A DNA stretch of 64,000 nt from Candidatus Methylomirabilia bacterium (GTDB taxonomy: Bacteria; Methylomirabilota; Methylomirabilia; Rokubacteriales; CSP1-6). The DNA is taken from assembly GCA_041496385.1 (NCBI GenBank), contig JBGQEL010000010.1, positions 7,387 through 71,386 of the forward strand, written 5' to 3'. Positions 7,625-42,194 of this stretch are shown one piece after another (the stretch's first letter is position 1; each line of letters starts with the position of its first letter). The notes beneath the pieces were generated by a model that worked only from the letters and a program-made list of their open reading frames with translations, was not told the DNA's origin and made no database searches. The position numbers were made by a program, and so were the translations under genes.

Positions 7625-10518
7625 GCGTGCCCCCGGACGACCTTCTTGAGGTAGGTCACGGACGGCCGCGTGCCGAGCTCGTCGAGCACGTCGTAGGCGC
7701 GCGGCGCGTGGACGAGCTGGGCGAGCGCGCCCTTGCCGTCCTTGAGGTTCCCGAAGGTGATCGCCCGCGTCGGGCACGTCTGCTGGCAGGCGGTCACGAT
7801 GTCGCCGTCCCGCACGGGGCGCTTCTCGTCCTTCGCGTGGTCCTTGCCGGCGACGATGCGCTGGATGCACATCGTGCACTTCTCCATGACGCCGAGCTGG
7901 CGGACCGTGACGTCGGGGTTCAGCTGCACGTCGAGCGGTGTGGGGAACTCGTAGTTGAACCAGTTGAAGCGCCGGACGTGGTACGGGCAGTTGTTCCCGC
8001 AGTAGCGCGTGCCGACGCACCGGTTGTAGACCTGACCGTTCAGCCCCTCCTCCGTGCGGTACGCGGCGAAGACCGGACAGACGGGCTCGCACGGCGCAAC
8101 CTCGCAATGCTGACAGAGCATCGGCAGGAAGGCGCTCGTGGATTGCTCCGCCTTGCCCTCGGCCCAGCGCTCGATGCGGATCCAGTGGAGCTGCCGGCCG
8201 TAGGCGGCCTGCGCCTTGCCGACGACCGGCACGTTGTTCTCGGCGTGGCAGGCGACCACGCACGCCTGGCAGCCGATGCAGGCGTCCACGTCGATGGCGA
8301 GCCCCCAGCGGTATCCGGGATAGACCTTCTCGGGGTACATGCTGATGGGCCGCTCCGGCTCGCGCCGGCCGCGCAGGGCCTCCTCGCGCGCCGCGCGCAG
8401 GTCCACGTGCTGGACCAGCTCGCGATCGTCCTGATCGTGCGTGGCCTGCAGGATCGCGAGCGGGCGCCGCGCGCCCGTCTTCGTGAGCGTCACGCGCACG
8501 CCGAGATAGACGGGGCCGCCCGACGCCGCGTCCGGGGCGCCCGACAGCAGCGCGACCGGGTTCAGCGGCGTCGGCGGCGCCGCGACGTAGCGCGGCACGT
8601 GGTATGCGGCGTAGCGATGGCCGATCGGGATCGCGACGGCCTGGCCGTGGAGCGTCGTCGAGACGTACGCGGGCAGCTCGATCGCGCCGTGCGGCGACGC
8701 GACGCGCAGCACGTCGCCCGTGACGACGCCGAGCGCCGCCGCCGTGGCGGCCGGCACCTCGACCCAGGCGTCCCAGACGGCCTGCGTCATCGTGTCGGGC
8801 GCCTCCTGGAGCCACGCGCGGCTCGCGCCCCGCCCGTCGTAGAACCGGAACGAGGGATACGCGAGCAGGGCCAGGCCGGCCGCATCGCCCTCGAGCTTCA
8901 CCGGCGCGGGCTCGAGCGCGACGGGCTTCGCGGTGACCGGCGCGACCGTGACGTCCCGCCAGAGACCGCCCTGCCGCAGCGCCGCGGCCCACTCGCCCTT
9001 GACGACGGGCTCCCACACGGACTTGAGGTATTGCTCGAACGACCCCCACGGGAGCGGCCCCTTGCCCTCCTCGGTGCCGAGGACGGCGCGCGCGATCGCC
9101 AGCAGCGTGTCGCCCATCGGCTTGGCCTCGCGCGCGGGCGACATCGTGGGCTGCATGAGGCCCGTCACGCCCTCGCGGGGCGTGTAGTCGCCCCACGACT
9201 CGAGCCAGTGCGTGTCGGGCAGGACGAGGCCCGCGAGGGCGGTCGTCTCGTCGGGTACGCTCGCGAAGCTGACGACGAGACCTGCCTTGCGGATCGCGGC
9301 GCCGACCTTGAGGCCGCCCGGAAGTGTGAAGGCCGGGTTGACGCCCGGGCCGAGCAGGAGGAGCTTGATCTCACCACGCTCCATCGCCTTCGCGAGCTCG
9401 ACCACCTCGGCGTACGGTGTCACCTTGCCGTACGCGGCGTCGGGACCGAAGCGCACCGTCCGGCCGATGTTCCCGGCCGCGGCGTTGAGGAGATTGATCG
9501 CCACCAGCGTGTCGGTGGCGTTGGATCCCGTCACGGCGACGCCGCCGCCGACCGCGAGCCCGGGCTTGGCGTGACCGAACACCTCGGCGACGTGCTTGAT
9601 CCGCGCGATGGGCACGCCGCTCTGCTCGGAGACGCGCGTCAGGTCCACCTTCGCCACCGCGTCGGCGAAGCGACGGTCGGCGAGGCCCTCCTCGACCATC
9701 ACCCGGAGCACGGCGAGCGCCAGCATCCCCTCGGTGCCGGGCGCGTTGCGCAGCCACTCGTCGGCGTTCGCCGCCGTGAGCGACTGCCGGGGCTCGACGT
9801 GAATGACCGTTCCGGCGCGCCCGTCCCGGAACGTGTGCATCCGGCCGAACCCCGTGGCGTGCCCCACGTTGGAGAGCCACGTCTCGAGGAAGTCGGCGCC
9901 GAACGAGAGCACCACCTCGGCGTCCTCGAACGCATGGTACGGGATCGCGTCGCGACCGAAGGTGACCCGGTTCGCCGCGCGGATCGCCTCGTAGCCGAAG
10001 GGCTCCAGCGTCACGCGCGGCCGCGCGCCGACCGCCTGGCCCCAGCGGTCCACGAGAGCGCCGAGGCTGCCGTTCTCGAGCTGCGTGACCACCGCGATCG
10101 CGCGCCCCTGGCCGCCGGCCCTGAGCGCGGCGATCGTGTCGCTCACCTGCTTGATCCCGGCCTCCCAGCTCACCGGCTTGACGCCACGCCCCTCGGGGAC
10201 ACCGGGTCCGGCGAAGCGGTCCGGGTGGTAGAGCCCCTGCAGCGCGGCCTGCCCGCGGACGCAGAGCGCGCCCTGGTTGACCGGATGGTCGGGGTTCCCC
10301 TCGAGCTTCACCACGCGACCGTCGCGGTTTCGCGCGAGGACGCCGCAGCCGGCCGGGCACTCGCGGCAGACGGTCGCGAACCACGCCGCGACGCCCGGCA
10401 CGAGCTGCTCGTTCGGCACGACCAGCGGGAGGATGCGCTCCGTCGTCTGCTGACAGCCCGCGACCGTTGCGCTCGCACCGCTCGCGGCCACGATCTTGAA
10501 GAAGTCGCGTCGGTTCAT
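7621..10518 (-). CDS. actB: Alternative complex III subunit ActB (molybdopterin-oxidoreductase-like domain fused to an Fe-S domain)
   Basis: Tat motif (RRDFFK) with lipobox (VAGC); C-terminal CIGCQACVVAC, CQHCEVAPCEPVCP, CVGTRYCGNNCP and EKCTMC...CQQTCP clusters. Confidence 0.9.
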   Translation of the reverse strand: MNRRDFFKIVAASGASATVAGCQQTTERILPLVVPNEQLVPGVAAWFATVCRECPAGCGVLARNRDGRVVKLEGNPDHPVNQGALCVRGQAALQGLYHPDRFAGPGVPEGRGVKPVSWEAGIKQVSDTIAALRAGGQGRAIAVVTQLENGSLGALVDRWGQAVGARPRVTLEPFGYEAIRAANRVTFGRDAIPYHAFEDAEVVLSFGADFLETWLSNVGHATGFGRMHTFRDGRAGTVIHVEPRQSLTAANADEWLRNAPGTEGMLALAVLRVMVEEGLADRRFADAVAKVDLTRVSEQSGVPIARIKHVAEVFGHAKPGLAVGGGVAVTGSNATDTLVAINLLNAAAGNIGRTVRFGPDAAYGKVTPYAEVVELAKAMERGEIKLLLLGPGVNPAFTLPGGLKVGAAIRKAGLVVSFASVPDETTALAGLVLPDTHWLESWGDYTPREGVTGLMQPTMSPAREAKPMGDTLLAIARAVLGTEEGKGPLPWGSFEQYLKSVWEPVVKGEWAAALRQGGLWRDVTVAPVTAKPVALEPAPVKLEGDAAGLALLAYPSFRFYDGRGASRAWLQEAPDTMTQAVWDAWVEVPAATAAALGVVTGDVLRVASPHGAIELPAYVSTTLHGQAVAIPIGHRYAAYHVPRYVAAPPTPLNPVALLSGAPDAASGGPVYLGVRVTLTKTGARRPLAILQATHDQDDRELVQHVDLRAAREEALRGRREPERPISMYPEKVYPGYRWGLAIDVDACIGCQACVVACHAENNVPVVGKAQAAYGRQLHWIRIERWAEGKAEQSTSAFLPMLCQHCEVAPCEPVCPVFAAYRTEEGLNGQVYNRCVGTRYCGNNCPYHVRRFNWFNYEFPTPLDVQLNPDVTVRQLGVMEKCTMCIQRIVAGKDHAKDEKRPVRDGDIVTACQQTCPTRAITFGNLKDGKGALAQLVHAPRAYDVLDELGTRPSVTYLKKVVRGHA

Positions 10519-27682: not shown

Positions 27683-28687
27683 CTACCCCAGCAGCAGCTC
27701 GGCAATCTGCACCGCGTTCGTGGCCGCGCCCTTCCGCAGCTGGTCGCCGACCACCCAGAAGCAGAGGCCGGTCGGGCTCCCGAGGTCCTCGCGGATCCGG
27801 CCCACGAAGCAATCGTCCTGCCCCTCGACCTCCACGGGCATCGGGTAGCGGTGCCGGGCCGGGTCGTCCCAGAGACGGAGCCCCGGGAACCGCGCGAAGA
27901 GCTCGCGCGCCCGCTCGGGCGTCACCCGCGTCTCGGTCTCAGCGGTCACGGCGACGGAGTGGCAGGTGAAGACCGGCACGCGCACGGTCGTGGGCGTGAT
28001 GAGGACGTCCGGCGCCTCGAGGATCTTGCGCGTCTCGTGGACAAGCTTCATCTCCTCGCCCGTGTAGCCGTTCGGCCCGAACGTGTCGATGGCGGGGATC
28101 AGGTTGAAGGCGATGCGGTGCGGGAAGTGGCGCGGCGTCATCGCCTCGCCGCGCGCCCAGGCGAGCGTCTGCTCCCGCAGCTCGGCGATTCCGTTCACGC
28201 CGGCGCCGGAGACCGCCTGGTAGCTCGTGGCGACCACGCGGCGGAGCCGGCCCGCGTCGTGGAGCGGCTTGAGCGGCATGACGGTGACGATCGTGGTGCA
28301 GTTCGGTGACGCGAGGATTCCGCGGTGGCTCTTCGCCGCATGCGCGTTGATCTCGGGAACGACGAGGGGCACGTGGGGATCCATCCGGAACGCGTTCGAC
28401 TTGTCGATGACGGTCGCGCCCGCCCGCACGATCATGGGCGCGTACTCCTTCGACTGGGCCGAGCCCGCAGAGCAGAACGCGATCTCGACGCCCTCGAAGG
28501 CCGCCGGCTCGATGCGCTGGACGCGGACCGGCTCGCCCCGAAAGGTCACGCTCGTGCCGACCGAGCGCTCGGAGGCGAACGCCCGGAGCTCGCGCACCGG
28601 GAACTTCCGCTCCTCGAGGATCCGGAGGGTCATTTGTCCGGCCGCGCCCGTGGCGCCGACCAGGGCGACCGTCACGCCCGATGCCAT
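27683..28687 (-). CDS. asd: Aspartate-semialdehyde dehydrogenase
   Basis: VGATGAAG, SPNCTT, SYQAVSGAG, VRVPV and DQLRKGAATNAVQIAE. Confidence 0.95.
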   Translation of the reverse strand: MASGVTVALVGATGAAGQMTLRILEERKFPVRELRAFASERSVGTSVTFRGEPVRVQRIEPAAFEGVEIAFCSAGSAQSKEYAPMIVRAGATVIDKSNAFRMDPHVPLVVPEINAHAAKSHRGILASPNCTTIVTVMPLKPLHDAGRLRRVVATSYQAVSGAGVNGIAELREQTLAWARGEAMTPRHFPHRIAFNLIPAIDTFGPNGYTGEEMKLVHETRKILEAPDVLITPTTVRVPVFTCHSVAVTAETETRVTPERARELFARFPGLRLWDDPARHRYPMPVEVEGQDDCFVGRIREDLGSPTGLCFWVVGDQLRKGAATNAVQIAELLLG

Positions 28688-29772
28688 CAGTACTGGGCCT
28701 CCACCATCTTCACGATCAGATCCCCCATGGCGCGCGTTCCGACCGGCTTCGTCCCCGCACCCGCGACGTCCGCGGTGCGATGCCCCTGCTCGAGCACCCC
28801 CTGCACCGCCCGCTCGACCCGGTCGGCGTCCTTCTCCATGTCGAGGGAGTATCGCAGGAGCAGGGCCGCCGAGAGGATCGCCGCGATCGGGTTCGCGATC
28901 CCCTTGCCGGCGATGTCCGGCGCCGTCCCGTGCACGGGCTCGTAGAGGCCCACGGTTCCGCCGAGCGACGCCGACGGCAACATGCCCATCGAGCCCGCGA
29001 GAATCGCGGCCTCATCGGACAAAATATCACCGAAGGTGTTCTCGGTCACAATTGTGTCGAAGTGGGTGGGCTTGTGGACGAGCGCCATGGCGCAGTTGTC
29101 CACCAGCACGTGCTCGAGCGCCACGTCCGGGTAGTCCCCTCCGACGCGCGTCACGACCTCCCGCCAGAGCTGCGAGACGACGAGCACGTTCGCCTTGTCC
29201 ACCGAGGCGAGGCGCTTGCGGCGCTTGCGCGCGACCTCGAAGCCCATCCGTGCGATCCGCTCGATCTCCCGCTCCGTGTACACCATCGTGTTGACGGCGC
29301 GCGCCCCGCCGGCGCCGGAGCGCTCGATGCCCCGCGGCTCGCCGAAGTACAGGCCGCCGGTCAGCTCGCGAATGACCATCAGGTCGGTGCCCTCGACGAC
29401 CGACCGCTTGAGCGGCGAGGCGTCGACGAGCATCGGGAAGCACTTCGCGGGGCGCAGGTTCGCGTAGAGGTCGAGCTCCTTGCGCAGCGCGAGAAGCCCG
29501 CGTTCGGGGCGCGTCTCATGCGGGACGTTGTCCCACTTCGGGCCGCCGACCGCGCCGAAGAGGATGGCGTGGGAGGCGCGGCACAGCTCGAGCGCCCCCG
29601 GGGCGAGCGGCCGGCCCGTCGCATCGATCGCGGCGCCGCCCACGAGCGCCTCCTCGAACTCGAAGGCCGCCCCGGTGCCCCTGGCGACCGCCTTCAGCAC
29701 GCGCACCGCCTCCGGGGTGACCTCCTGACCGATGCCGTCGCCGGGCAGGAGCGCGATCTTGTAGGTGGGCAT
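28687..29772 (-). CDS. leuB: 3-isopropylmalate dehydrogenase
   Basis: [49 protein letters not shown] and ANPIAAILS. Confidence 0.95.
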
Positions 29773-29788
29773 CAGGCGCCCACGATCG

Positions 29789-31333
29789 TCATGGCCCGAC
29801 TTCCTTGACGCGCTGGACGGCCGGCTGCGCGATGCGGTTGACCGCCGACAGGTAGGCGCGGGCGCTCGCCTCGATCACGTCGGTCGAGGAGCCCTTGCCC
29901 GAGACGATCGTCCCGTCGAAATCGACCTTCATCGCCACCTCGCCGATCGCGTCCTTGCCCGAGGTCGCCGCGCGCAGCGAGTAGTCCTGGAGCCGGCCCT
30001 TGAGCCCCGTGATCGCGTCGATCGCGGCGAGCACGGCGTCGACCGGGCCGTCGCCGACCCCCGAGTCCTGGAACACCTGTCCGTCCTTCTTGAGCTTCAC
30101 CGTGGCCGACGGCACCACGCCCGTGCCGCTGATGACGTGGAGGTACTCGATCTCGTACCCGGCCACCTGCTGGGTCACCTCGTCGGTGACGATCGCCATC
30201 AGGTCCTCGTCGTAGACCTCCTTCTTGCGGTCGGCGAGGCCCTTGAAGGACTTGAAGGCGCGGTCGAGGTCCACGGCCGGCAGGTCGAAGCCGAGATCCT
30301 TCAGCCGCGCCGCCAGCGCGTGGCGTCCCGAGTGCTTGCCGAGCACGAGCTTGTTCGACGGCCGTCCGATGTCCTCCGGCCGCATGATCTCGTACGTGAG
30401 CTTCTCCTTCAGCACGCCGTCTTGATGGATCCCCGCCTCGTGCGCGAACGCATTCTCGCCGACGATCGCCTTGTTGGGCTGGACGTGCACGCCCGTGATG
30501 TGGGAGAGAAGGCGCGACGTCTTGAAGATCTGCTCGGTCCGCACGCGCGTGTCGACGCCGAAGAAGTCCTTGCGCGTCTTGAGCGCCATCACGATCTCCT
30601 CCAGCGAGGCGTTGCCCGCGCGCTCGCCGATCCCGTTGATCGTGCACTCGATCTGGCGCGCGCCGCTCATGAGCGCCGTGAGGGAGTTGGCGACCGCCTG
30701 GCCGAGGTCGTTGTGGCAGTGCACCGAGAGGACGACGCGGTCGATCCCCTGCACCCGCTCGCGGATCCGCGCGATCCGCTCGCCCCATTCGCGCGGGACC
30801 GCGTAGCCCACCGTGTCCGGAATGTTGATCGTCCCGGCGCCCGCCTCGATGACCGCCGAGAGCACGTCGCACATGTAGTCGAAGTCGGAGCGCGAGGCGT
30901 CCTCGGGCGAGAACTCGACGTCCCCGCAGTACCCCCGCGCGTGCCGGACGGCCTCGACGGAGGCCTTCAGGATCTCGGCGCGCGACTTGCGGAGCTTGTA
31001 CTTCAGGTGGATGTCCGAGGTCGCGACGAAGGTGTGGATGCGCGGCTTGGTCGCGTACTTCACCGCCTCCCAGCAGCGGTCGATGTCGCCGAGCCCGACG
31101 CGTGAGAGGCCGCAGATGGCCGGCGCGCCCTCCAGCGTCCCGACCTGCTTGGCGACCTCGCGTGTGGCCTCGAAATCCTCGTCCGACGAGATCGGGAACC
31201 CGGCCTCGATCACGTCCACCTGGAGCCGGGCCAGCTGGCGGGCCATCTCGAGCTTCTCCATCGTGTTCATCGAGAAGCCGGGCGCCTGCTCGCCGTCCCG
31301 CAACGTCGTGTCGAAGATGATGACGCGATCCAT
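29789..31333 (-). CDS. leuA: 2-isopropylmalate synthase
   Basis: [35 protein letters not shown] and LGKHSGR, plus a C-terminal regulatory domain. Confidence 0.95.
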
Positions 31334-31347
31334 GTGCCCCCCCCGAC

Positions 31348-32145
31348 TCACGGATGCTCCTTGACGTGCTCGATCGGTACGGCAGCGGGCGCCGGCGCGC
31401 GTCCCACGATCAGCCGCCGGACCGGGCCCGAGAGCGCGTACCCGACGAAGATAAGAAACAGGAAGAGCTCGTGGCTCGTGGCCACGATCATGACGCCCAG
31501 CACGACCACCAGCAGCGTCTGCAGCGGCCGGCGGCGCGCGAAGTCGAGCTCCTTGAAGCTCCAGTAGCGAAAGGTCGACACCATCAGCAGCGCGACGAGG
31601 TAGGTGCCGACGGCGATCGAGACGAGCAGCGAGCGCGAGGCGGGCGCGCCCTGGAGCAGGATCACGGCGGAGCCCACCACGCCCGCGGCCGCCGGCGTCG
31701 AGAGGCCGACGAAGTACCGGCGGTCCACCGTGCCCGTGTGGATGTTGAAGCGCGCCAGGCGCAGCGCGCCGCAGATCACGAACAGGAAGGCGCCGAACCA
31801 CGCCGGGCGCCCCAGCGCCGAGAGCGCGAACGAGTAGACGAGAAACGCCGGCGCCACGCAGAACGAGACGACGTCGGCGAGCGAGTCGAACTCCACGCCG
31901 AACTGGCTGGTCGCCTTCATGAGTCGCGCCACGCGCCCGTCCAGAAGATCCATGATCATCGCCACGAAGATCGCGAGCGCCGCCTCCGTGTAGCGATTCT
32001 CGACCGTCAGGAGCAGCGCGAAAAAGCCGCAGAACAGGTTGCCCGTCGTGAGCAGACTCGGGAGCAGGAAGATCCCGCGGCTCCGCTTCTCCCGAAGGTC
32101 GTGCCAGCGCCGCCGCCTGGGTCCCCTGTTGTGCCGCCGGATCAC
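31348..32145 (-). CDS. pssA: CDP-diacylglycerol--serine O-phosphatidyltransferase
   Basis: LPSLLTTGNLFCG, DLLDGRVAR...SQFGVEFDSLADVVSF and ALRLARFN. Confidence 0.93.
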   Translation of the reverse strand: MIRRHNRGPRRRRWHDLREKRSRGIFLLPSLLTTGNLFCGFFALLLTVENRYTEAALAIFVAMIMDLLDGRVARLMKATSQFGVEFDSLADVVSFCVAPAFLVYSFALSALGRPAWFGAFLFVICGALRLARFNIHTGTVDRRYFVGLSTPAAAGVVGSAVILLQGAPASRSLLVSIAVGTYLVALLMVSTFRYWSFKELDFARRRPLQTLLVVVLGVMIVATSHELFLFLIFVGYALSGPVRRLIVGRAPAPAAVPIEHVKEHP

Positions 32146-32771
32146 GCCGCCACTCCGAGCACCGTCACGCCGCCGACGACGCGATCGCCGGCCCGCACGC
32201 GCACGTCCGTCCCGCGCGGCATGACGCAGTCCGTCCGCGAGCCGAAGCGGATCATCCCAAAACGCTCGCCCGCCTCGAGCTTGTCGCCGGGCCCGACGCG
32301 GCACACGATCCGGCGCGCGACGACGCCCGCGATCTGCACGACCGTCACGCGGAGGCTCTCGCCCTGCAGGTGCACGGTGCAGCGCTCGTTCGCCGCCTCC
32401 GCCTCCCGCCGGTAGGCGGCGAGGTACCGTCCGCGCGCATACACGGTACCCACGACGAGGCCCGCGATCGGCGAACGGTTGACGTGGACGTCGAGCGGCG
32501 ACAGGAAGATCGCCACGCGCACGGCCGGCCCCACGAACCGCTCCTCGATCTCGTCCACCGAGAGCACGCGCCCGTCGGCGGGCGCGAGGACGCCGCCCGG
32601 CACCGACGGCACGTCGCGCTCGGGGTCACGGAAGAAGCCGAGCGCGGCGAGCGACGCGGCGGCGAACGGCGCGGCGAGCGCGCGGCGGCCCGTCAGCGCG
32701 AGCCCCGCGGCCACGATGCCCGGGACCAGGATAAAGGGCCAGCCTTCGCGCGCGACGGGGAGCTTCGTCAC
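32142..32771 (-). CDS. psd: Phosphatidylserine decarboxylase proenzyme
   Basis: FFRDPER, APADG, IFLSPLDVHVNRSP, QIAGVVARRI and RFGSR cleavage motif. Confidence 0.92.
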   Translation of the reverse strand: MTKLPVAREGWPFILVPGIVAAGLALTGRRALAAPFAAASLAALGFFRDPERDVPSVPGGVLAPADGRVLSVDEIEERFVGPAVRVAIFLSPLDVHVNRSPIAGLVVGTVYARGRYLAAYRREAEAANERCTVHLQGESLRVTVVQIAGVVARRIVCRVGPGDKLEAGERFGMIRFGSRTDCVMPRGTDVRVRAGDRVVGGVTVLGVAA

Positions 32772-32772
32772 G

Positions 32773-33777
32773 TCACATTCTCGGCGGCTTGATCCAGGAC
32801 ATCATCGCCCGGAGCCGCTTGCCGACGTCCTCGATCGGATGCTCGGCGTCGCGCCGGCGCATCGCGAGGAACCCGGCGCGGTTGGCCTGGTTCTCGAGCA
32901 CCCACTCGCGCGCGAACTGCCCCGACTGGATCTCGCCGAGGATCTTCTTCATCTCGGCCTTCGTCTCGGGGCTCACGATGCGCGGGCCGCGCGTGTAGTC
33001 GCCGTACTCCGCGGTGTCCGAGACCGAGTAGCGCATGTAGGCGAGCCCGCCCTGGTAGAACAGGTCGACGATCAGCTTCATCTCGTGCATGCACTCGAAG
33101 TACGCGACCTCGGGCTGGTAGCCGGCCTCGACGAGCGTCTCGAACGCCGCCTTGATCAGGTGCGAGATACCGCCACAGAGCGCCGCTTGTTCGCCGAAGA
33201 GATCCGTCTCCGTTTCTTCCTTGAACGTCGTCTCGAGCACGCCCGCGCGGGTGCACCCCACGCCCTTGCCGTACGCGAGCGCCATGTCGCGCGCCTTGCC
33301 GCTGACGTCCTGGTAGACGGCGAGCAGCGCGGGGACACCCGGCCCCTGCGTGAACAGGTCGCGCATCACGTGGCCCGGTGCCTTGGGCGCGATCATCGTG
33401 ACGTCCACGTCGGGCGGCGGCACCACCTGGTTGAAGTGGATGTTGAAGCCGTGGGCGAACATCAGCATCTTGCCCTTCCCGAGTCCGCCCTTGATCTCCG
33501 ACTCGAAGACCTGGCGCTGGCTCTGGTCGGGCAGCAGCACCATGATCGCCTCCGCCATCTGGGCGGCCTCGTTCACGGTCGCCACCCGGAGCCCTTCCTT
33601 CTCGGCCTTCGCCCAGCTCTTCGAGCCCTTGTAGAGGCCGACGACGACGTCCAGGCCCGAGTCCTTCAGGTTCAGCGCGTGGGCGTGCCCCTGGCTGCCG
33701 TAGCCGATGATCGCGATCTTCTTGCCCTTGAGCAGGCCGAGATCGGCGTCCTGGTCGTAGTAGATCTTCGCGGGCAT
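32773..33777 (-). CDS. ilvC: Ketol-acid reductoisomerase
   Basis: [36 protein letters not shown] and SDTAEYGD. Confidence 0.97.
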
Positions 33778-33803
33778 CTCGTGTGTCCTTTCGTCTGTGA
33801 GTG

Positions 33804-34378
33804 TTAGTCGGCGAAGCCGACCACCTTCGGATCGTCGGTGACGCGCGGCTTCCGGGGCGCCTCGGCGCGCCGCGCGCGCGTCTTCGGGCCGCGCGCGATC
33901 ACGACCTTGCCCGTCCGCACGACCTCCTGGATCCCCATGGGGCGCAGCAGCTCGACCAGGGCCTCGAGCTTGCCCTCGTCGCCCGTGGCTTCGAGGACGA
34001 ACGAGCTCTGGGTGACATCGATCACGCGCGCCCGGAAGATGTCGGCCGTCCGGAGGATCTCCGCCCGGTTCGACGGTTCCGCGTTCACCCGGATGAGGAC
34101 GAGCTCGCGCTCGACGTGACTCTCGTCGGTGAGATCGGTCACCTTGATCACGTCGATGAGCTTGTGCAGCTGCTTCGTCACCTGCTCGATGACGAACTCG
34201 TCGCCGCGCACGACGAGGGTCATCCGGGAGACCGACGGGTCGAGCGTCTCGCCCACCGACAGGCTCTCGATGTTGTAACCGCGCGCCGAGAACAGCCCGG
34301 CGACCCGCGAGAGGACGCCGAACTTGTTCTCGACCTGGACCGCGATCGTGTGCTTCCGGGGCTCGCTGCCGTTCTGCA

Positions 34379-34379
<1 letters not shown>
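33804..34379 (-). CDS. ilvN: Acetolactate synthase small (regulatory) subunit
   Basis: [33 protein letters not shown] and ERELVLI. Confidence 0.95.
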
Positions 34380-36133
<1,754 letters not shown>

Positions 36134-36190
36134 TGACAGGTCCTCCCAGAGCAGTCCGGCCGTGGCCGGGACTTCCTCGCTGAGTCGGCG

Positions 36191-38896
36191 CTACGCATTC
36201 GGGGCCCCTTCGGCCGACGCCTCGCGCACCTTGAGCCGGGCCTGCGCCGCGCTGAGCCGCGCGATCGGGATCATGAACGGCGAGCACGACACGTAGCTCA
36301 TGTTCACCCGGTGGCAGAACTCCACGGACGACGGCTCGCCGGCGTGCTCGCCGCAGATGCCGATCTTGAGGTCCGGCCGCGTGCGGCGGCCGCGCTCGAT
36401 GCCGATCTTGATCAGCTCGCCGACACCCTCCTGGTCGAGAACCGAGAAGGGATCGTGCGCCAGCACCCCCTTCTGCAGGTAGTCCGGCAAGAACTTCGCG
36501 ACGTCGTCCCGGCTGTACCCGAACGTCATCTGGGTGAGGTCGTTGGTGCCGAAGGAGAAGAATTCGGCGTCCTGCGCGATCTTGTCGGCGATGAGCGCCG
36601 CGCGCGGGACCTCGATCATGGTGCCGATCAGGTACTTGACCGGCACGCCCATCTCCACGAGGACGGCGTCGGCGACCTTCTTGGTGTTGTCGTGCGTGAG
36701 CCGCATCTCACCGACGGTGCCGGTGAGCGGGATCATGATCTCGGGCTCGACCTTCACGCCGCGCTCGGCCACGGTACAGGCCGCCTCCATGATGGCGCGC
36801 ACCTGCATCGCGTAGATCTCGGGCGAGGTGATGCCGAGCCGGCAACCGCGGTGGCCGAGCATCGGGTTGGCCTCGCGCAGCGAATCGATCTTGCCGATCT
36901 TCTCGTCGAGCTCGGCCTGGAGCGCCGGGTTGATGTTGAGCGCCTCGAGGCGCGCCCGCTCCTCGAGCATGTCGCGGTACTCCTTGGGATTCGCGAGGAA
37001 CTCGTGCAGCGGCGGATCGAGGAGCCGGATCGTCACGGGCAGACCATCCATCGCCTCGAAGATTCCGACGAAGTCGTCGCGCTGGAACGGCAGCAGCTTC
37101 TGCACGGCCGCGCGGCGCTTGACATGGTCGCCGGCCATGATCATCTCGCGCATGATCGGGATACGGTCGGCGGCGAAGAACATGTGCTCCGTACGCACGA
37201 GCCCGATGCCCTCGGCGCCGAAGTCGCGCGCCTTCCGCGCGTCCTCCGGCGTGTCGGCGTTGGCGCGGACGCCGAGCGTGCGATACCGGTCCGCCCACGC
37301 CAGGAACTCCTTGAACTCCGGGGCGAGGCCGCCCTCGATGGTCTTCACCGCATCGAGGATCACTTCGCCGCTCCCGCCGTCGATCGAGACGATATCGCCC
37401 TCGCGCACCTTCCGGCCCGCGGCCGTGAAGATCCGCCGCGTCTCGTCGACGACGATCTCCCCGGCGCCCACGATGCAGGACTTCCCCATCCCCACGGCCA
37501 CGACGGCGGCGTGCGACGTCCGCCCGCCGCGCGCGGTCACGATCCCGCGCGACGCGTACATGCCCGCGACGTCCTCCGGCGAGGTCTCCGGCCGGACGAG
37601 GATCACGGCGCGGCCCTCCTTGCCCCACTCCACCGCGCGGTCGGCGTCGAAGACGACCTCGCCCACCGCCGCGCCGGGCGCCGCGGGGAGCCCCCGGGCG
37701 AGCAACCGTCCGCGCGCGATCGCCTGCTCCTTGTCGGCGGCGTCGAAGCCCGGATGAAGCACCTGGTGCAGATCTTGAGGTCGGACGCGCAGGAGCGCCG
37801 TGTGCTGGTCGATGACCGCCTCGTGCACGAGGTCGACGGCCACCTTCACCGCGGCCGCCGCCGACCGCTTGCCGGCGCGAGTCTGGAGCAGGTAGAGCCT
37901 GCCCTCCTGGATCGTGAACTCGATGTCCTGCATGTCCTTGTAGTGACGCTCGAGCCGCCCGGCGATGGCGAGCAGGTCGTCGTAGATCTCCGGCATCCGC
38001 CGCTTGAGGTCGTCGATGTGCTCGGGCGTCCGGATGCCCGCCACCACGTCCTCGCCCTGAGCGTTGGCGAGGAACTCCGCGTAGAAGCGCTGCTCGCCCG
38101 TGCGCGGGTCGCGCGTGAACCCGACGCCGGTGCCGGAGGTCTCGCCGAGGTTCCCGAAGACCATCGCCATCACGCTGACGGCCGTCCCCCAGTCCGCCGG
38201 GATGTTGTTGATCCGCCGGTACTCCGTCGCCTTCTTGCCGAACCAGGAGTCGAACACGGCCTTGACCGCGAGATGCAGCTGTTCCTTGGGATCCTGCGGG
38301 AACGGCGCGCCCGTGCGCGAGCTGACGAGATCCTTGTACGTCTCCGTCAGCTTGCGCAGCTCGGCGGCCGGCACCTCGGGATCGGTTTTGATGCCGAGGC
38401 GCGCCTTGAGCGCGCTCAGGTGCTCGTCGAACACCTCACGCCGGATGCCCAGAACCACGTCGCCGAACATCGTGACGAACCGACGGTAGCAGTCCCAGGC
38501 GAACCGTTCGTTGTGCGTCCACGCGGCGAGCCCCTCGACCGTCGCGTCGTTGAGACCGAGGTTGAGGACCGTCTCCATCATGCCGGGCATGGAGACGCGC
38601 GCCCCCGAGCGGACGGAGACCAGGAGAGGGCGCTTGGGGTCGCCGAGGCCGAGGCCGGCGTCGTGCTCGAGCTTCTCGAGGGCGCCGGCAACCTGCTCCC
38701 ACAGGTCGTCCGGAACCTGCCGCTTCGTCCGGTTGTAGTGCGCCCAGGCCTGCGTGGTGATCGTGAAGCCGGGCGGCACCGGAATGCCGAGGTTCGTCAT
38801 CTCGGCGAGCTCGCATCCCTTGCCGCCCAGGAGGTTGCGCATCACGGACGAGCCTTCAGCCTTGCCCGAACCGAAGGAGTAGACGTACTTGATCAT
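36191..38896 (-). CDS. ppdK: Pyruvate, phosphate dikinase
   Basis: GGKG, SVRSGARVSMPGMM, GGRTSHAAVVA (phospho-His), GLVRTEHMF, FSFGTNDLTQ and GICGEH. Confidence 0.97.
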   Translation of the reverse strand: MIKYVYSFGSGKAEGSSVMRNLLGGKGCELAEMTNLGIPVPPGFTITTQAWAHYNRTKRQVPDDLWEQVAGALEKLEHDAGLGLGDPKRPLLVSVRSGARVSMPGMMETVLNLGLNDATVEGLAAWTHNERFAWDCYRRFVTMFGDVVLGIRREVFDEHLSALKARLGIKTDPEVPAAELRKLTETYKDLVSSRTGAPFPQDPKEQLHLAVKAVFDSWFGKKATEYRRINNIPADWGTAVSVMAMVFGNLGETSGTGVGFTRDPRTGEQRFYAEFLANAQGEDVVAGIRTPEHIDDLKRRMPEIYDDLLAIAGRLERHYKDMQDIEFTIQEGRLYLLQTRAGKRSAAAAVKVAVDLVHEAVIDQHTALLRVRPQDLHQVLHPGFDAADKEQAIARGRLLARGLPAAPGAAVGEVVFDADRAVEWGKEGRAVILVRPETSPEDVAGMYASRGIVTARGGRTSHAAVVAVGMGKSCIVGAGEIVVDETRRIFTAAGRKVREGDIVSIDGGSGEVILDAVKTIEGGLAPEFKEFLAWADRYRTLGVRANADTPEDARKARDFGAEGIGLVRTEHMFFAADRIPIMREMIMAGDHVKRRAAVQKLLPFQRDDFVGIFEAMDGLPVTIRLLDPPLHEFLANPKEYRDMLEERARLEALNINPALQAELDEKIGKIDSLREANPMLGHRGCRLGITSPEIYAMQVRAIMEAACTVAERGVKVEPEIMIPLTGTVGEMRLTHDNTKKVADAVLVEMGVPVKYLIGTMIEVPRAALIADKIAQDAEFFSFGTNDLTQMTFGYSRDDVAKFLPDYLQKGVLAHDPFSVLDQEGVGELIKIGIERGRRTRPDLKIGICGEHAGEPSSVEFCHRVNMSYVSCSPFMIPIARLSAAQARLKVREASAEGAPNA

Positions 38897-38927
38897 GAGC
38901 GCGTGTCTCCCTCACGACAGACAAAAA

Positions 38928-38966
38928 AGTCTTGTAAGACTACAGGATGGAGAGCATTCGCGTCAA
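38928..38966 (-). promoter_or_regulatory. Candidate internal ppdK promoter with an overlapping palindrome
   Basis: TTGACG (38966-38961), 18 nt, TAGTCT (38942-38937); AGTCTT-GT-AAGACT inverted repeat at 38928-38941. Confidence 0.5.
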
Positions 38967-39009
38967 TCTTTCTCACGCCTTCTCCGTTCGAAAGAAGCCT
39001 CGGTCCCTG

Positions 39010-39047
39010 AAAAGCGAAAGGGCCACGGGTCGCTTCACCCGTGGCCC
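39010..39047 (-). terminator. Intrinsic terminator of the attenuator
   Basis: 11-bp stem GGGCCACGGGT/ACCCGTGGCCC with a 6-nt loop, followed by TTTCGCTTTT. Confidence 0.85.
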
Positions 39048-39101
39048 CCAGAGTTTCCATCGCCACGGGCCCATCTCCTGCCCGTGGCATCCGATCTCGC
39101 G

Positions 39102-39185
39102 TTACTTCGCGGATGCTCCGGGCAGGCCCGGCAGCGCCAGCAGAATAATGCCTAGCGATGGTACCCGCGAGGTCATTGACGTCAT
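39102..39185 (-). CDS. Branched-chain amino acid leader peptide MTSMTSRVPSLGIILLALPGLPGASAK
   Basis: 27-aa ORF, absent from the track; control codons GTA...CTA GGC ATT ATT CTG CTG GCG CTG, including AT-ending codons that are rare here. Confidence 0.78.
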   Translation of the reverse strand: MTSMTSRVPSLGIILLALPGLPGASAK

Positions 39186-39220
39186 GGTGAAGGCAGCATA
39201 CGCGTTGACGCGACCGCCTG

Positions 39221-39985
39221 TCAAGATCGCTTGCCCCGTCCCCGCCCCCCCTCGTCGTCCCTGCCGAGCACGAGCTCCTCGACAGCCTCGAGGTGGTCGA
39301 CCATGGCCCGTCGCGCCTCACGCTCGTCGCGCGCGGCGATCGCGGCCAGGATGCGCTGGTGATCCTGGTGCGAACGCGTCGGCCGGCCGGGCGTGTTGAG
39401 CGATTCCTCCCGGCTCTGGGTGAGAAGGTCCATGACCGCGTGCGCGATCCGCGTGATCGCGCGGTTGTGCGCCGCCGCGCCGATGGCCGCGTGGAAGGCC
39501 GCGTCCTGGGTCAGGCCGGTCTTGCCGTCCGCGATCTCGCGCGCCTGCTCCGCGAGGATCCGCTCCATCTCCTGGATCTCCTCCCGGGTGGCGCGCGCCG
39601 CGGCGAGCTCCGCGAGCGCCGGCTCGAGGAGCCGGCGCGCCTCGAAGAGCTCGCCGATCGCCTCGCGCTGCGACGTCATCACCAGCGCGAGCGGCTCGAC
39701 CAGCGCCTCGATCGACACCTCGCGGACGAACGTCCCCTCCCCGGCGCGGATCTCGAGGAGCCCCAGACTTTCGAGCGCGCGCAGCGCCTCGCGGACCGAG
39801 GTGCGGCTCACGACGAACTTCTCGGCCAGGTCGCGCTCGGGCGGGAGCTGATCGCCGCTCTTGAGTCGCCCCTCGGCGATCATCTGCTTGACCTGGCGGA
39901 CGATCTCCTCGTAGATGCGCGTGGACTTGATCGGCGAGAGGCTCACGGTACGGTCGGGGCGCCGCGCGCGCCCACGGGCGGGCAT
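39221..39985 (-). CDS. GntR/FadR-family transcriptional regulator
   Basis: GDQLPPERDLAEKFVVSRTSVREAL wHTH plus FCD domain (DAAFH...AAHN, HQRIL); start may instead be GTG 39946. Confidence 0.93.
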   Translation of the reverse strand: MPARGRARRPDRTVSLSPIKSTRIYEEIVRQVKQMIAEGRLKSGDQLPPERDLAEKFVVSRTSVREALRALESLGLLEIRAGEGTFVREVSIEALVEPLALVMTSQREAIGELFEARRLLEPALAELAAARATREEIQEMERILAEQAREIADGKTGLTQDAAFHAAIGAAAHNRAITRIAHAVMDLLTQSREESLNTPGRPTRSHQDHQRILAAIAARDEREARRAMVDHLEAVEELVLGRDDEGGRGRGKRS

Positions 39986-40689
39986 CAGGGGCTCCTCCGC
40001 GCGTGCGCGTGGCCGTGGCGCCGCGCGCGCGCGAACCACCAGCCGAGCGCCGCGATGAGCGCGCCGATGGCCGGAGGCGTCACGCGGTGAAGCGTTCCCG
40101 CCGCGTCGCCGAGCCAGCGCGTCACGAGCCGGTCCTCCAGGACCATCTCGCCCGCGACGTAGCCCAGGAGCCCGCCCCCCAGCCAGACGATCCACGCGTA
40201 GCGATTCATCAGGTAGGCGAGAAGCCCCGCGCCCCAGACCACGATGGGCAGCGAGAGCCCGATCCCGAACATGACGAGGAGGAGATCGCCGTGCGCCGCC
40301 GCCGCGATCGCCAGCACGTTGTCCAGGCTCATCGTCACGTCGGCGACGATGATGATCCAGACGGCCTCCCAGAGGGACGTCCCGTGCCGCACGCCGCCGT
40401 CCGCGTCCGCGCCCGGTCGCACGAGCCGGGCGGCGATCCAGATGAGCAGCAGCCCGCCCGCGAGCTGGAGCAGCGGCACCCTGAGGAGCACGCTCACGAT
40501 CGCGACGAAGACGAGCCGCAGCACCACCGCGCCGACCGCACCCCAGATCTGCCCCAGCACGCGCTTGCGTTTGGGCAGCGCGCGCACGGCGAGCGCGATG
40601 ACCAGCGCGTTGTCGCCGGACAGGATGAGATTCAGGAAGCCAATCCCGAGGAGACGCACCCAGAACTCGGGGTCGAGGAGGACGGCCAT
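39985..40689 (-). CDS. TerC-family (YjbE-like) membrane protein
   Basis: NLILSGDNALVIALA and ADVTMSLDNVLAIA motifs. Confidence 0.9.
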   Translation of the reverse strand: MAVLLDPEFWVRLLGIGFLNLILSGDNALVIALAVRALPKRKRVLGQIWGAVGAVVLRLVFVAIVSVLLRVPLLQLAGGLLLIWIAARLVRPGADADGGVRHGTSLWEAVWIIIVADVTMSLDNVLAIAAAAHGDLLLVMFGIGLSLPIVVWGAGLLAYLMNRYAWIVWLGGGLLGYVAGEMVLEDRLVTRWLGDAAGTLHRVTPPAIGALIAALGWWFARARRHGHAHARRSP

Positions 40690-42194
40690 CAGGCGCCCGG
40701 CGCCGGCGCCCCGCGCATCCGGCGCCACCACGGCGTCAGCACGGGGAGGGCGAAGAAGAGAAGGGCGACGCCGGTGATCGCGCCCGCGATCGGTCGCGTG
40801 ACGAAGATCGCGACCGAGCCCTGCGACATGATGAGGCTCTGGCGGAGCGCGTTCTCGGCGAGGTCGCCCAGCACGAGGGCCAGGACCAGCGGCGCCAGCG
40901 GGTAGTCGAGCTTCTTGAACACGTAGCCCACCACGCCGAAGATCACCATGTACCAGATGTCGATCATGCTGTTGTGCACGGCGTAGGAGCCGACGGCGCA
41001 CACGACCACGATCACGGGCGTCAGGATCGCAAACGGGATGCGGAGGATCATGGCGAAGAACGGCACGAACGCCAGGACCATCAGCACGCCGATGATGTTC
41101 CCGGTGTACATGCTCGCGATGAGTCCCCAGACGAACTCGGGGCGTTCCTTGAAGAGGAGCGGCCCGGGCTGGAGACCCCAGATGATGAGCCCGCCGAGCA
41201 TCACGGCCGCGGTCGGTGAGCCCGGGATGCCCAGCGTGAGCATCGGCAGCATCGCGGCGACGCCCGCCGCGTGGGCGGCGGTCTCGGGCGCCACGACCCC
41301 CTCCAGCTCGCCCTGCCCGAACCGTTCCGGATGCCGTGAGAAGCGCTTGGCGAAGGCGTAGCTCATGAACGAGGCGGGCGTGGCGCCTCCCGGTTTGAAG
41401 CCCATCCAGAAGCCGATGAACGAGCCGCGCACGAACGTGCGCCAGTAGCGCGGCAGGATCTTCCAGGTCTCGAGGACGACCCCGAGCTTCATGCCCGTGG
41501 GCGCGCTGCGGAACGAGAGCCCCTCCTCGACCGACAGGAGGATCTCGCCGACCCCGAACAGGCCGATGACGGCGACGATGAAGTCGAAGCCTTTCATCAG
41601 ATCCACGAAGCCGAAGGTCATCCGGAGCTGGCCGGTGACGATGTCGAGCCCCACCGCGGCGAGGATGAAGCCGAGCAGGATCGAGACGAGCGACTTGAGC
41701 GGGTTACCGCCGCCGAGGCCGACGAAGCTCGAGAAGGTCAGGAGCTGGATCGCGAAGAACTCGGGCGGCCCGAACTTGAGGGCGATCTCCGCCAGGACCG
41801 GCGCGAAGAAGGTGATCAGGACGATCGAGAAGAAGGCGCCGACGAACGACGAGGTGAACGCGGCGGTCAGCGCCTGGCCCCCCTTCCCCTGGCGCGCCAG
41901 CGGGTAGCCGTCGAACGTCGTTGCGACCGACCACGGCTCACCGGGGATGTTGAAGAGGATAGACGTGATGGCCCCGCCGAAGAGCGCGCCCCAGTAGAGC
42001 GACGTCAGCAAGATGATCGCGGAGGTCGGCGGCATGGTGAACGTGAGCGGCAGCAGGATCGCGACACCGTTGGCCCCACCCAGCCCCGGCAGGACGCCGA
42101 TGATGGTGCCGAGGGTGATGCCGACGACGGCGACGAACAGGTTGTAGGGCGTGATCGCGACGTGGAAGCCGAGGACGAGGTTTTCGATGCCCAT
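40689..42194 (-). CDS. tctA: Tripartite tricarboxylate transporter, large subunit
   Basis: GVLPGLG, LFNIPGEP, DGYPLARQG, APETAAHA and LTLGIPGS; about 12 TM helices. Confidence 0.92.
   Translation of the reverse strand: MGIENLVLGFHVAITPYNLFVAVVGITLGTIIGVLPGLGGANGVAILLPLTFTMPPTSAIILLTSLYWGALFGGAITSILFNIPGEPWSVATTFDGYPLARQGKGGQALTAAFTSSFVGAFFSIVLITFFAPVLAEIALKFGPPEFFAIQLLTFSSFVGLGGGNPLKSLVSILLGFILAAVGLDIVTGQLRMTFGFVDLMKGFDFIVAVIGLFGVGEILLSVEEGLSFRSAPTGMKLGVVLETWKILPRYWRTFVRGSFIGFWMGFKPGGATPASFMSYAFAKRFSRHPERFGQGELEGVVAPETAAHAAGVAAMLPMLTLGIPGSPTAAVMLGGLIIWGLQPGPLLFKERPEFVWGLIASMYTGNIIGVLMVLAFVPFFAMILRIPFAILTPVIVVVCAVGSYAVHNSMIDIWYMVIFGVVGYVFKKLDYPLAPLVLALVLGDLAENALRQSLIMSQGSVAIFVTRPIAGAITGVALLFFALPVLTPWWRRMRGAPAPGA

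Follow-up and report, generated by a model that had tools for sequence, protein, structure and literature searches.

A probable leaderless leader-peptide attenuator between gntR and the ppdK-ilv-leu genes of Rokubacteria

In enterobacteria, the leu, ilvGMEDA, ilvBN, his, and trp leaders are the classical cases of attenuation, and in Staphylococcus aureus a Leu-rich leader peptide reportedly attenuates the combined ilv-leu operon together with CodY. Classical attenuation has been modelled (PMC1183508), and the closest described system to the one reported here is the attenuator of ilvBNC in Corynebacterium glutamicum, in which the leader peptide IlvL likewise precedes the acetolactate synthase genes (PMC11857589, PMC10272879). 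Candidate ilvB leaders with terminators are described in Mycobacterium and Streptomyces (PMC1262725), and leaderless polycysteine short open reading frames (ORFs) attenuate cys operons in mycobacteria (bioRxiv 10.1101/834739). Here we describe an element on the minus strand of a 64,000-nucleotide stretch of contig JBGQEL010000010.1, from a Candidatus Methylomirabilia bacterium (Rokubacteria); this whole stretch, of 70% G+C, is called the window. The element lies between a gene for a GntR-type regulator and ppdK (pyruvate, phosphate dikinase), the first of a series of genes that continues with ilvB. We consider it quite probable that it is a ribosome-mediated (leader-peptide) transcription attenuator that senses the rate at which Leu, Ile, and Val codons are translated.

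The element begins with a promoter, P1 (coordinates of all features are given in Table 1), which was the sole sigma-70-type match of a promoter scan in positions 33000-41000, where shuffled sequences yield 0.5. The ATG of the leader ORF (39185) lies 9 nt past the P1 -10 hexamer and has no Shine-Dalgarno sequence. Control codons 8-18 of the ORF encode Val, Leu, two Ile, and three further Leu, and several of them are very rare. In a reference of 11 window genes (4513 codons), ATT makes up 3% of the Ile codons, CTA 0 of 401 Leu codons, GTA 2 of 417 Val codons, CCA 1 of 239 Pro codons, and TCA 5 of 191 Ser codons; the rare codons of the leader are GTA, CCA, CTA, ATT, ATT, and TCA. The pattern TTGAC-N18/19-TANNNT-N7/10-ATG occurs twice in the window, compared with 0.01 occurrences expected. 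An initial annotation, made from the sequence alone, had proposed this promoter, the ATG spacing, the 27-codon ORF, and a control block of rare codons; the promoter scan and the codon usage agree with it, and the ORF proved to be conserved in relatives.

To collect relatives, species-representative genomes were scanned with ilvB and metagenomes with ppdK; the two scans together gave ~26 Rokubacteria loci. The leader was detected by BLASTN in 20 related loci, one of which (L086) holds only a fragment cut by the contig end. The window and 19 related loci make up the alignment of 20 sequences to which the counts below refer; in its metagenome loci, the N-terminus of ppdK is 73-88% identical to that of the window. 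In all 20, the GntR gene and ppdK flank the module. P1 is also present in every one, with a TTGAC-type -35 hexamer (exact in 19), a spacer of 17-18 nt, and a TAnnnT -10 hexamer, and the leader invariably starts with an ATG 7-10 nt past the -10 without a Shine-Dalgarno sequence. Because this distance would leave a 5' untranslated region (UTR) of roughly 0-4 nt, the leader mRNA is predicted to be leaderless or nearly so, a property on which the initial annotation had not remarked. The leader ORF changes in length in steps of 3 nt only, and its stop (TAA or TAG) is fixed relative to RNA segment 1'. The spacers between the RNA segments vary freely in length and sequence.

The leader peptides have a variable N-terminus followed by a common sequence, R-V-L-S-L-G-L-I-L-L-A-L-P-G-L-P-G-A-S-A, and contain 5-10 Leu, 0-3 Ile, and 0-4 Val each. 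Of the Ile/Leu control codons proposed at first, those for Leu are universal, whereas the rare ATT occupies the main Ile position in 16 of the 20 sequences; Val is variable. Column entropy divided the ORF into three zones. No position is constrained in the N-terminal codons. Codons 7-18 show an entropy of 0.90 bits at third positions, twice that at first and second positions (0.47 and 0.41 bits), which points to a coding-type constraint that preserves codon identity. Codons 19-25 are conserved to the same degree at each of their three positions (0.1-0.2 bits), which points to a constraint at the RNA level, and this zone coincides with RNA segments A0 and A. Thus, aligning the intergenic region of relatives, as the initial annotation had suggested, revealed a leader ORF, control codons, and stems that are kept in 20 loci, with compensatory changes in seven pairs, as described below.

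Neither BLASTN nor a covariance model detected the leader in the more distant Rokubacteria loci L002, L004, L099, and L100. The covariance model (R1) found no second copy in the window and no match elsewhere among 160 loci that included 75 ilvB and 59 ppdK loci of other phyla; its minus-strand echoes were palindromic hairpins only.

The 3' part of the ORF and the RNA that follows it can form several alternative helices. Segment A (39126-39111) and 39092-39077 form a 14-bp helix interrupted by a 2x2 internal loop, segment 1 can pair with either A or segment 2, and the core of segment 3, GCCACGGGT (39045-39037), is complementary to segment 2 as well as being part of the terminator. A terminator scan matched 39049-39018 with 13 pairs, 9 of them G-C, followed by TTTCGCTTTT. 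The A:1' helix and segments 1, 2, and 3 thus lie where they were first placed, and to these we add the A0:2 pairing; the terminator with its U tract is likewise present, with a stem of 13 bp in place of the 11 bp first given. The 186-nt leader folds at -91.8 kcal/mol, compared with -74.5 +/- 4.2 kcal/mol for dinucleotide shuffles (z = -4.1; 0 of 200 as good). The motif GCCACGGG has 14 copies in the window (6.25 expected), 4 of them clustered within a span of 67 nt. The helix energies are -28.6 (A:1'), -19.9 (1:2), -18.2 (2:3), and -27.5 kcal/mol (3:4). Since the antiterminator 2:3 is weaker than the terminator 3:4, the decision between them would have to be kinetic; the E. coli trp leader has the same energy pattern, with an antiterminator weaker than its terminator.

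Both of the alternative folds are preserved in the alignment. Of the alignment cells, 98.0% were paired in the antiterminating fold (A:1' with 2:3) and 98.2% in the terminating fold (1:2 with 3:4), and sliding the partners by 1-3 columns reduced pairing to 31-51%. For the individual helices, the values were 98.9% (A:1'), 98.9% (1:2), 96.7% (2:3), and 97.7% (terminator). Compensatory changes were found in 7 pairs (15 cells), 2 of which lie in A:1', for example GCAUCC:GGAUGC to GCGUCC:GGACGC or GCAACC:GGUUGC, and 5 in the terminator, where 4 are at the stem base, beyond the overlap with 2:3. Six of the seven pairs involve no nucleotide with two partners, and in the seventh (terminator 214:222, one cell) one base is the last of the 2:3 segment; the remaining dual-partner positions of the 9-mer cores are invariant or show G-U changes only. 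This distribution, with invariant cores where a base has two partners and covariation where it has one, is what a switch predicts and argues against two independent hairpins. Unguided RNAalifold recovered A:1' and 3:4 together with the conserved A0:2 extension. A pairing in the single-sequence minimum free energy (MFE) fold between CCAUCGCUAGGC, in the control codons, and GCGAUGG, past segment 2, was dropped because its 3' partner is not conserved in relatives; GCCGGG:segment 2 is the conserved alternative. Also rejected as coding was a plus-strand ORF (38947-39399) that overlaps the leader, since the inter-segment spacers vary by non-multiples of three.

To follow the effect of translation on these pairings, a ribosome footprint of 27 nt was masked during folding. 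A:1' was retained with the A site at codons up to and including 17, and 1:2 formed instead from codon 18 to the stop. In stepwise folds with the ribosome stalled at Ile13 or Leu15, A:1' formed first and then 2:3; with the ribosome at the stop, 1:2 formed once segment 2 emerged. The stall and run-through logic of the initial annotation was thereby reproduced. Equilibrium folds do not settle the kinetic choice between 2:3 and 3:4, and those of transcripts ending after segment 3 contained 2:3 at nearly every ribosome position and did not distinguish the states; the informative parts are the A:1'/1:2 switch and the stepwise folds.

The U tract is separated from the ppdK ATG (38896) by 113 nt that hold a second conserved promoter-like element, P2, in which AAGACTTTTT is followed by the ppdK Shine-Dalgarno sequence. 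The initial annotation had placed the attenuator directly upstream of ppdK, which is correct in that ppdK is the next gene and incorrect in that P2 intervenes. Across most relatives, the P2 consensus is aTTGACA-N17/18-TAG(G/A/T)(A/C)T-N2-AAAGACTTTTT. P2 is also found in L099 and L100, neither of which has the leader module, and L002 and L004, which lack the leader as well, have a comparable promoter-like site (TTGAC-17-TACGAT/TAACAT) farther upstream of ppdK. Because P2-type sites occur in relatives without the leader, P2 is probably the older promoter, with the P1-attenuator module placed upstream of it, and because P2 lies past the terminator, attenuation is probably not the sole control over ppdK and the ilv genes. 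P2 is absent from L097 and its -35 hexamer is deleted in L098, and in these two loci the module is 46-68 nt from the ppdK ATG; P1 is thus the only recognisable promoter there. With no terminator intervening, transcripts that read through from P1 must pass into ppdK, and the operon would have two inputs, P2 and a P1 gated by the attenuator.

The P2 region has features that exceed the needs of a promoter (38966-38906, minus strand), namely ATCC within the spacer, immediately 5' of the -10, and AAAGACTTTTT directly after the -10, and the same features occur in L001, L003, L082-L096, and L099-L101. The adjacent FadR-type GntR regulator may use the region as an operator and would then regulate P2; a search of the window for AAGACTTTTT at other sites, which could have marked a further operator, found none.

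The leader carries cognate control codons, an intrinsic terminator before the first structural gene, and an antiterminator that excludes, and is excluded by, both the terminator and a further upstream pairing, which are the features by which an attenuator can be tested in a sequence. The sequence elements, their conservation, the compatibility of the pairings, the covariation, the codon bias, and the geometry of the masked folds are directly supported, and from them we infer that the ORF is translated, where transcription begins, how the kinetic competition of 2:3 with 3:4 is decided, and that the leader responds to amino acid supply. In the mechanism that we propose, P1 mRNA would be leaderless, starting at or a few nucleotides from the AUG of the 27-codon ORF. 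When charged tRNA-Leu, tRNA-Ile, or tRNA-Val is scarce, the ribosome would slow at about codons 8-17 (GUA, CUA, AUU AUU, CUG CUG), where it would cover A0 and leave A free to capture segment 1. Segment 2, left unpaired, would pair with the emerging segment 3 and block the terminator, and the polymerase would read through across P2 into ppdK-ilvBNC-psd-pssA-leuA-leuB-asd. A ribosome that reaches the stop codon would cover both A0 and A and allow 1:2 to pair, leaving 3:4 to form the 13-bp terminator, and transcription would end at the U tract near 39010. If the leader is not translated, for example in read-through transcripts from the GntR gene, which would give the leader no Shine-Dalgarno sequence, A:1', A0:2, and 3:4 could all form, and termination would be the default. 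P2 would provide attenuation-independent expression of the operon in most relatives, and P1 with its attenuator would be a supplement inducible by Leu/Ile starvation.

Several points weigh against this mechanism. The Leu codons of the leader are mostly CUG, the second commonest Leu codon (34%), and occur in runs of at most 2-4, and the sensitivity of the sensor may be modest as a result; rare codons would be equally expected were the ORF simply non-coding. The covariation is limited, with an effective sequence number of 1.33 in the model and a single clade represented, and triple complementarity (1:2, 2:3, and 3:4) arises automatically when a hairpin is duplicated in tandem. The 3:4 helix is more stable than 2:3 by 9 kcal/mol, the equilibrium MFE fold always contains the terminator, and read-through needs an as yet hypothetical kinetic window. 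With P2 downstream of the terminator, the operon needs no P1, and the contribution of the attenuator to ppdK and ilv expression could be small. Finally, when control codons of related actinobacterial ilvB leaders were mutated in Streptomyces, the outcome was reportedly ambiguous, with no effect on ilvB regulation in Streptomyces coelicolor (cited in PMC1262725).

Three other explanations were considered. The one that survives best, although it is unlikely, is that the module is an autonomous short transcription unit that produces a small RNA or a 27-residue hydrophobic, signal-peptide-like peptide and whose own constitutive terminator insulates ppdK from the GntR gene; ppdK and the ilv genes would then be expressed from P2 only, and the alternative pairings would follow incidentally from a stem sequence common to two hairpins. 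Such a unit would accommodate a P2 that is conserved by ppdK even in relatives without the leader, as well as a terminator strong enough to appear in every equilibrium fold. The common peptide sequence resembles, by eye, a Sec signal peptide, and attenuator-derived RNAs and leader peptides of Sinorhizobium can act in trans (PMC6614838, PMC7298713). However, each of the three codon positions is conserved in the part that encodes the C-terminal LPGLPGASA, which indicates a constraint on RNA and not on protein, and the secreted product would be about one residue long. The four 9-mers are kept while single-partner positions covary, as if each core needs two partners, and the element is found solely ahead of a Leu/Val/Ile biosynthesis operon, with conserved codons for Leu, Ile, and Val. 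Moreover, L097 and L098 keep the module close to the ppdK ATG despite their loss of P2.

Less likely still is a translation-coupled attenuator that reports general translation capacity or coupling (ribosome availability, the efficiency of leaderless initiation, or the stringent response) and not the supply of Leu, Ile, and Val. Leaderless initiation is itself condition-dependent, and a general sensor would be in keeping with short runs of a fairly common CUG and with the S. coelicolor result. Against it, the amino acids of the control block are conserved with synonymous variation, the main Ile position is occupied by ATT far more often than the use of this codon in window genes (3%) would give, and the cargo is the Leu/Val/Ile pathway; in C. 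glutamicum, replacement of the Val codons of ilvL abolished valine-dependent expression (PMC11857589). That the ORF arose by chance beside an ordinary GntR-gene terminator and has no regulatory function is very improbable: spurious ORFs are plentiful in high-GC genomes and rare codons are typical of non-coding sequence, but 20 loci in which the spacers vary freely all keep the promoter, ATG spacing, frame, stop position, and every pairing segment, and the fold and pattern statistics are far from chance.

Table 1. Positions of the leader, promoter, and gene features in the window, and of T-box and REP-like features in related loci
Feature	Position	Strand	Remarks
GntR regulator gene, FadR-type	39221-39985	-	Pfam GntR helix-turn-helix and FCD domain; synteny
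P1 -35 hexamer, TTGACA	39219-39224	-	TTGAC in 19/20 aligned loci
P1 -10 hexamer, TATGCT	39195-39200	-	18-nt spacer to -35; TAnnnT, mostly TATACT, in 20/20
Leader ORF, MTSMTSRVPSLGIILLALPGLPGASAK	39102-39185	-	27 codons and TAA (39104-39102); 25-28 codons in 20/20 loci
Control codons 8-18, GTA CCA TCG CTA GGC ATT ATT CTG CTG GCG CTG	39132-39164	-	codon usage, third-position variability
Segment A0, GCCGGG	39127-39132	-	pairs with segment 2 in untranslated RNA; RNAalifold, 18-20 of 20 sequences paired per pair
Segment A, CCTGCCCGGAGCATCC	39111-39126	-	3' part of ORF; 5' arm of anti-antiterminator A:1'
Segment 1', GGATGCCACGGGCAGG	39077-39092	-	core is segment 1
Segment 1, GCCACGGGC	39080-39088	-	partner either A or segment 2
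Segment 2, GCCCGTGGC	39062-39070	-	partners segment 1, segment 3 (antiterminator), or A0
Segment 3, GGGGGCCACGGGT	39037-39049	-	terminator 5' arm
Segment 4, ACCCGTGGCCCTT	39018-39030	-	3' arm of 13-bp terminator stem; contains ACCCGTGGC
Terminator U tract, TTTCGCTTTT	39010-39019	-	T-rich in 20/20 loci; expected 3' end of attenuated transcript
P2	38924-38966	-	TTGACG 38966-38961, 18 nt, TAGTCT 38942-38937, AAGACTTTTT 38933-38924; conserved in most relatives
ppdK (901 aa)	36191-38896	-	first gene past attenuator
ilvB-ilvN-ilvC-psd-pssA-leuA-leuB-asd	27683-36133	-	tight packing 3' of ppdK; domain/family matches
T-box, other phyla	L008 13981-14264; L009 13776-13997; L010 8579-8797; L015 13994-14248; L021 14964-15209		RF00230
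REP-like units, Rokubacteria contigs	L084 ~8700-8890 (two copies); L082 ~2770-2815; L095 ~4290-4390; L081 ~1500-1560

The acetolactate synthase of the window has its closest match in a metagenome-assembled genome (MAG) of Rokubacteria (Methylomirabilota), with 91% identity. On the minus strand, the genes follow one another as tctC/tctA-type transporter, membrane protein, GntR regulator, leader, ppdK, ilvB, ilvN, ilvC, psd, pssA, leuA, leuB, and asd, and the gene order past the terminator is the one originally noted. The ppdK product matches TIGR01828 with 1309 bits (cut-off 843) and contains the Pfam domains PPDK_N, PEP-utilizers, and PEP-utilizers_C. From ppdK to asd, the intergenic spacers of the window are 0-57 nt long, the longest being that between ppdK and ilvB, and pssA and leuA overlap; scans of the window found no convincing terminator and no conserved promoter among these genes. 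Across loci without an intervening gene, the ppdK-ilvB spacer is 19-192 nt long and not conserved in sequence, and a search of this spacer in 13 loci for promoters and terminators yielded no conserved motif. The arrangement suggests that ppdK is co-transcribed with the ilv and leu genes. The cargo suits the sensor: ilvBNC, leuA, and leuB lead to Leu and Val, and ilvBNC is also used in Ile synthesis.

Every Rokubacteria locus with sufficient flank has gntR followed by ppdK, and ilvB-ilvN-ilvC-psd comes after ppdK wherever the contig is long enough, with a gene of the DapA (dihydrodipicolinate synthase) family intervening in some loci. The linkage of ppdK with ilvB is clade-specific, as ilvB is nearby in 0 of 59 ppdK loci of other phyla and ppdK in 1 of 75 ilvB loci. 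The GntR-type gene adjoins the module in every locus. The nearest NCBIfam models of its product are NanR, LldR, and PdhR, with scores below the cut-off for all three. At 39221-39224, its TGA stop sits within the P1 -35 hexamer TTGACA, and with no terminator between it and the leader, the attenuator terminator probably also ends the GntR transcript.

The DapA-family gene between ppdK and ilvB is intact in L004 (8923-9807), L005, L088, and L095, and only its last ~45 nt remain, as the ppdK-ilvB spacer, in the window (36134-36190), L003 (9880-10000), and L094; in several loci, this spacer is made up of the final codons of a DapA-family gene that is otherwise deleted and, after them, the ilvB Shine-Dalgarno sequence. 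In L004, the gene is flanked by a direct repeat of ~80 nt, at which recombination could have caused its loss. G+C-rich palindromic units resembling repetitive extragenic palindromes (REP-like; GGGGGTTTGGGGGCC...GGGGCCCCC) recur in intergenic spacers, both ppdK-ilvB and attenuator-P2, of several Rokubacteria contigs. The ppdK match is in two pieces in two metagenome contigs, L101 (2067-2145, overlapping) and L098 (1859-1888), which suggests a frameshift, an assembly error, or local divergence. A second promoter-ATG arrangement, TTGAC-N19-TAGGGT-N8-ATG, is present at 2902-2862 on the minus strand of the window. Its ATG (2864) begins MNRALGVVAVTAVLATGC..., a lipoprotein-type signal with a lipobox, six codons into the longest ORF (2882-2073), which suggests another leaderless gene and an organism that uses leaderless mRNAs.

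Taken together, these results describe a well-supported family of cis-regulatory RNA, absent from Rfam, in a candidate phylum without a cultured model and with almost no known regulation. The unusual placement of the element, ahead of ppdK and upstream of P2, suggests that pyruvate supply is coordinated with branched-chain amino acid synthesis. A fuller version of this idea, which we offer tentatively and rate somewhat below an even chance, is that Leu/Ile starvation co-induces ppdK (and, in some genomes, the pyruvate-dependent DapA-family enzyme) with acetolactate synthase and the leucine enzymes, and that the second promoter, perhaps under the neighbouring PdhR/LldR-like regulator, adds control by carbon status. 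If so, pyruvate supply and pathway capacity would rise together, in a two-input (amino acid OR carbon) design undescribed for ilv operons. For annotation, the 27-codon ORF and the attenuator are worth marking in Rokubacteria genomes, and ppdK there is to be read as a member of the ilv-leu operon.

With respect to described leaders, no Rfam family reached its gathering score anywhere in the window, including Leu_leader, Thr_leader, His_leader, and Trp_leader, and at E values up to 10 only chance-level matches to unrelated families were found in 38000-40000. The element thus lies outside every curated leader family in sequence and structure. Enterobacterial leaders resemble it in having a short ORF with cognate codons, overlapping 1:2, 2:3, and 3:4 pairings with a terminator more stable than the antiterminator, and a stop codon placed such that a terminating ribosome blocks the upstream pairing; as in the his leader, an additional upstream segment gives the alternation A:1, 1:2, 2:3, and 3:4. 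They differ in having a Shine-Dalgarno sequence and a 5' UTR, in their mostly longer codon runs (four Leu in leuL), and in abutting the first biosynthetic gene, and their Rfam models match nothing here. The leaderless polycysteine ORFs of mycobacteria, like the leader described here, stand at the head of a polycistronic transcript for amino acid biosynthesis and use codons for its product as the sensor (bioRxiv 10.1101/834739). They sense Cys, however, and earlier comparative work found no obvious intrinsic terminator for them (PMC1262725), whereas a canonical terminator and antiterminator are present in Rokubacteria. The attenuator peptide of the S. aureus ilv-leu operon, for its part, belongs to the Firmicutes and is not known to be leaderless.

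Geomonas, other Desulfuromonadota-like MAGs, and Nitrospira also have the array ilvB-ilvN-(ilvC)-psd-pssA-leuA. In five loci of other phyla, a T-box (RF00230, 102-119 bits) immediately precedes leuA and follows pssA in those loci where pssA was identified; none was found in the window. Like the element described here, the T-box is an RNA-level sensor of aminoacylation that acts by termination or antitermination, but it reads uncharged tRNA directly without translation and lies inside the array before leuA, whereas the translated leader stands at the head of the operon. The RNA sensor on this one conserved array thus varies with the phylum, being a T-box in some and a translated leader here.

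The C. glutamicum attenuator shares the most with the Rokubacteria element. Both have mixed Ile/Val/Leu control codons and three mutually exclusive successive hairpins (anti-antiterminator, antiterminator, and terminator), and ilvL of C. glutamicum is leaderless, with transcription starting one nucleotide from the start codon, compared with an ATG 7-10 nt past the -10 hexamer here. No sequence relationship with IlvL was detected. The peptide described here has 27 residues and is dominated by Leu, whereas IlvL has 15 and is rich in Val; the first gene is ppdK and not ilvB; an extra promoter lies between the terminator and the first gene; and the phylum is Methylomirabilota and not Actinomycetota. 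A full-text search, which is no proof of absence, found no literature linking ppdK to leader-peptide attenuation or to an ilvB operon and none on attenuation in Rokubacteria, in agreement with the initial annotation, which knew of no report of ppdK under such control. The kind of mechanism is therefore already known, even in its leaderless form, from the C. glutamicum ilv attenuator (PMC11857589). New are the phylum, by which leaderless leader-peptide attenuation would not be limited to Actinobacteria, a leader family unrelated to those described, ppdK (joined in some genomes by a DapA-family gene) as the first cargo, and a position upstream of a second conserved promoter.

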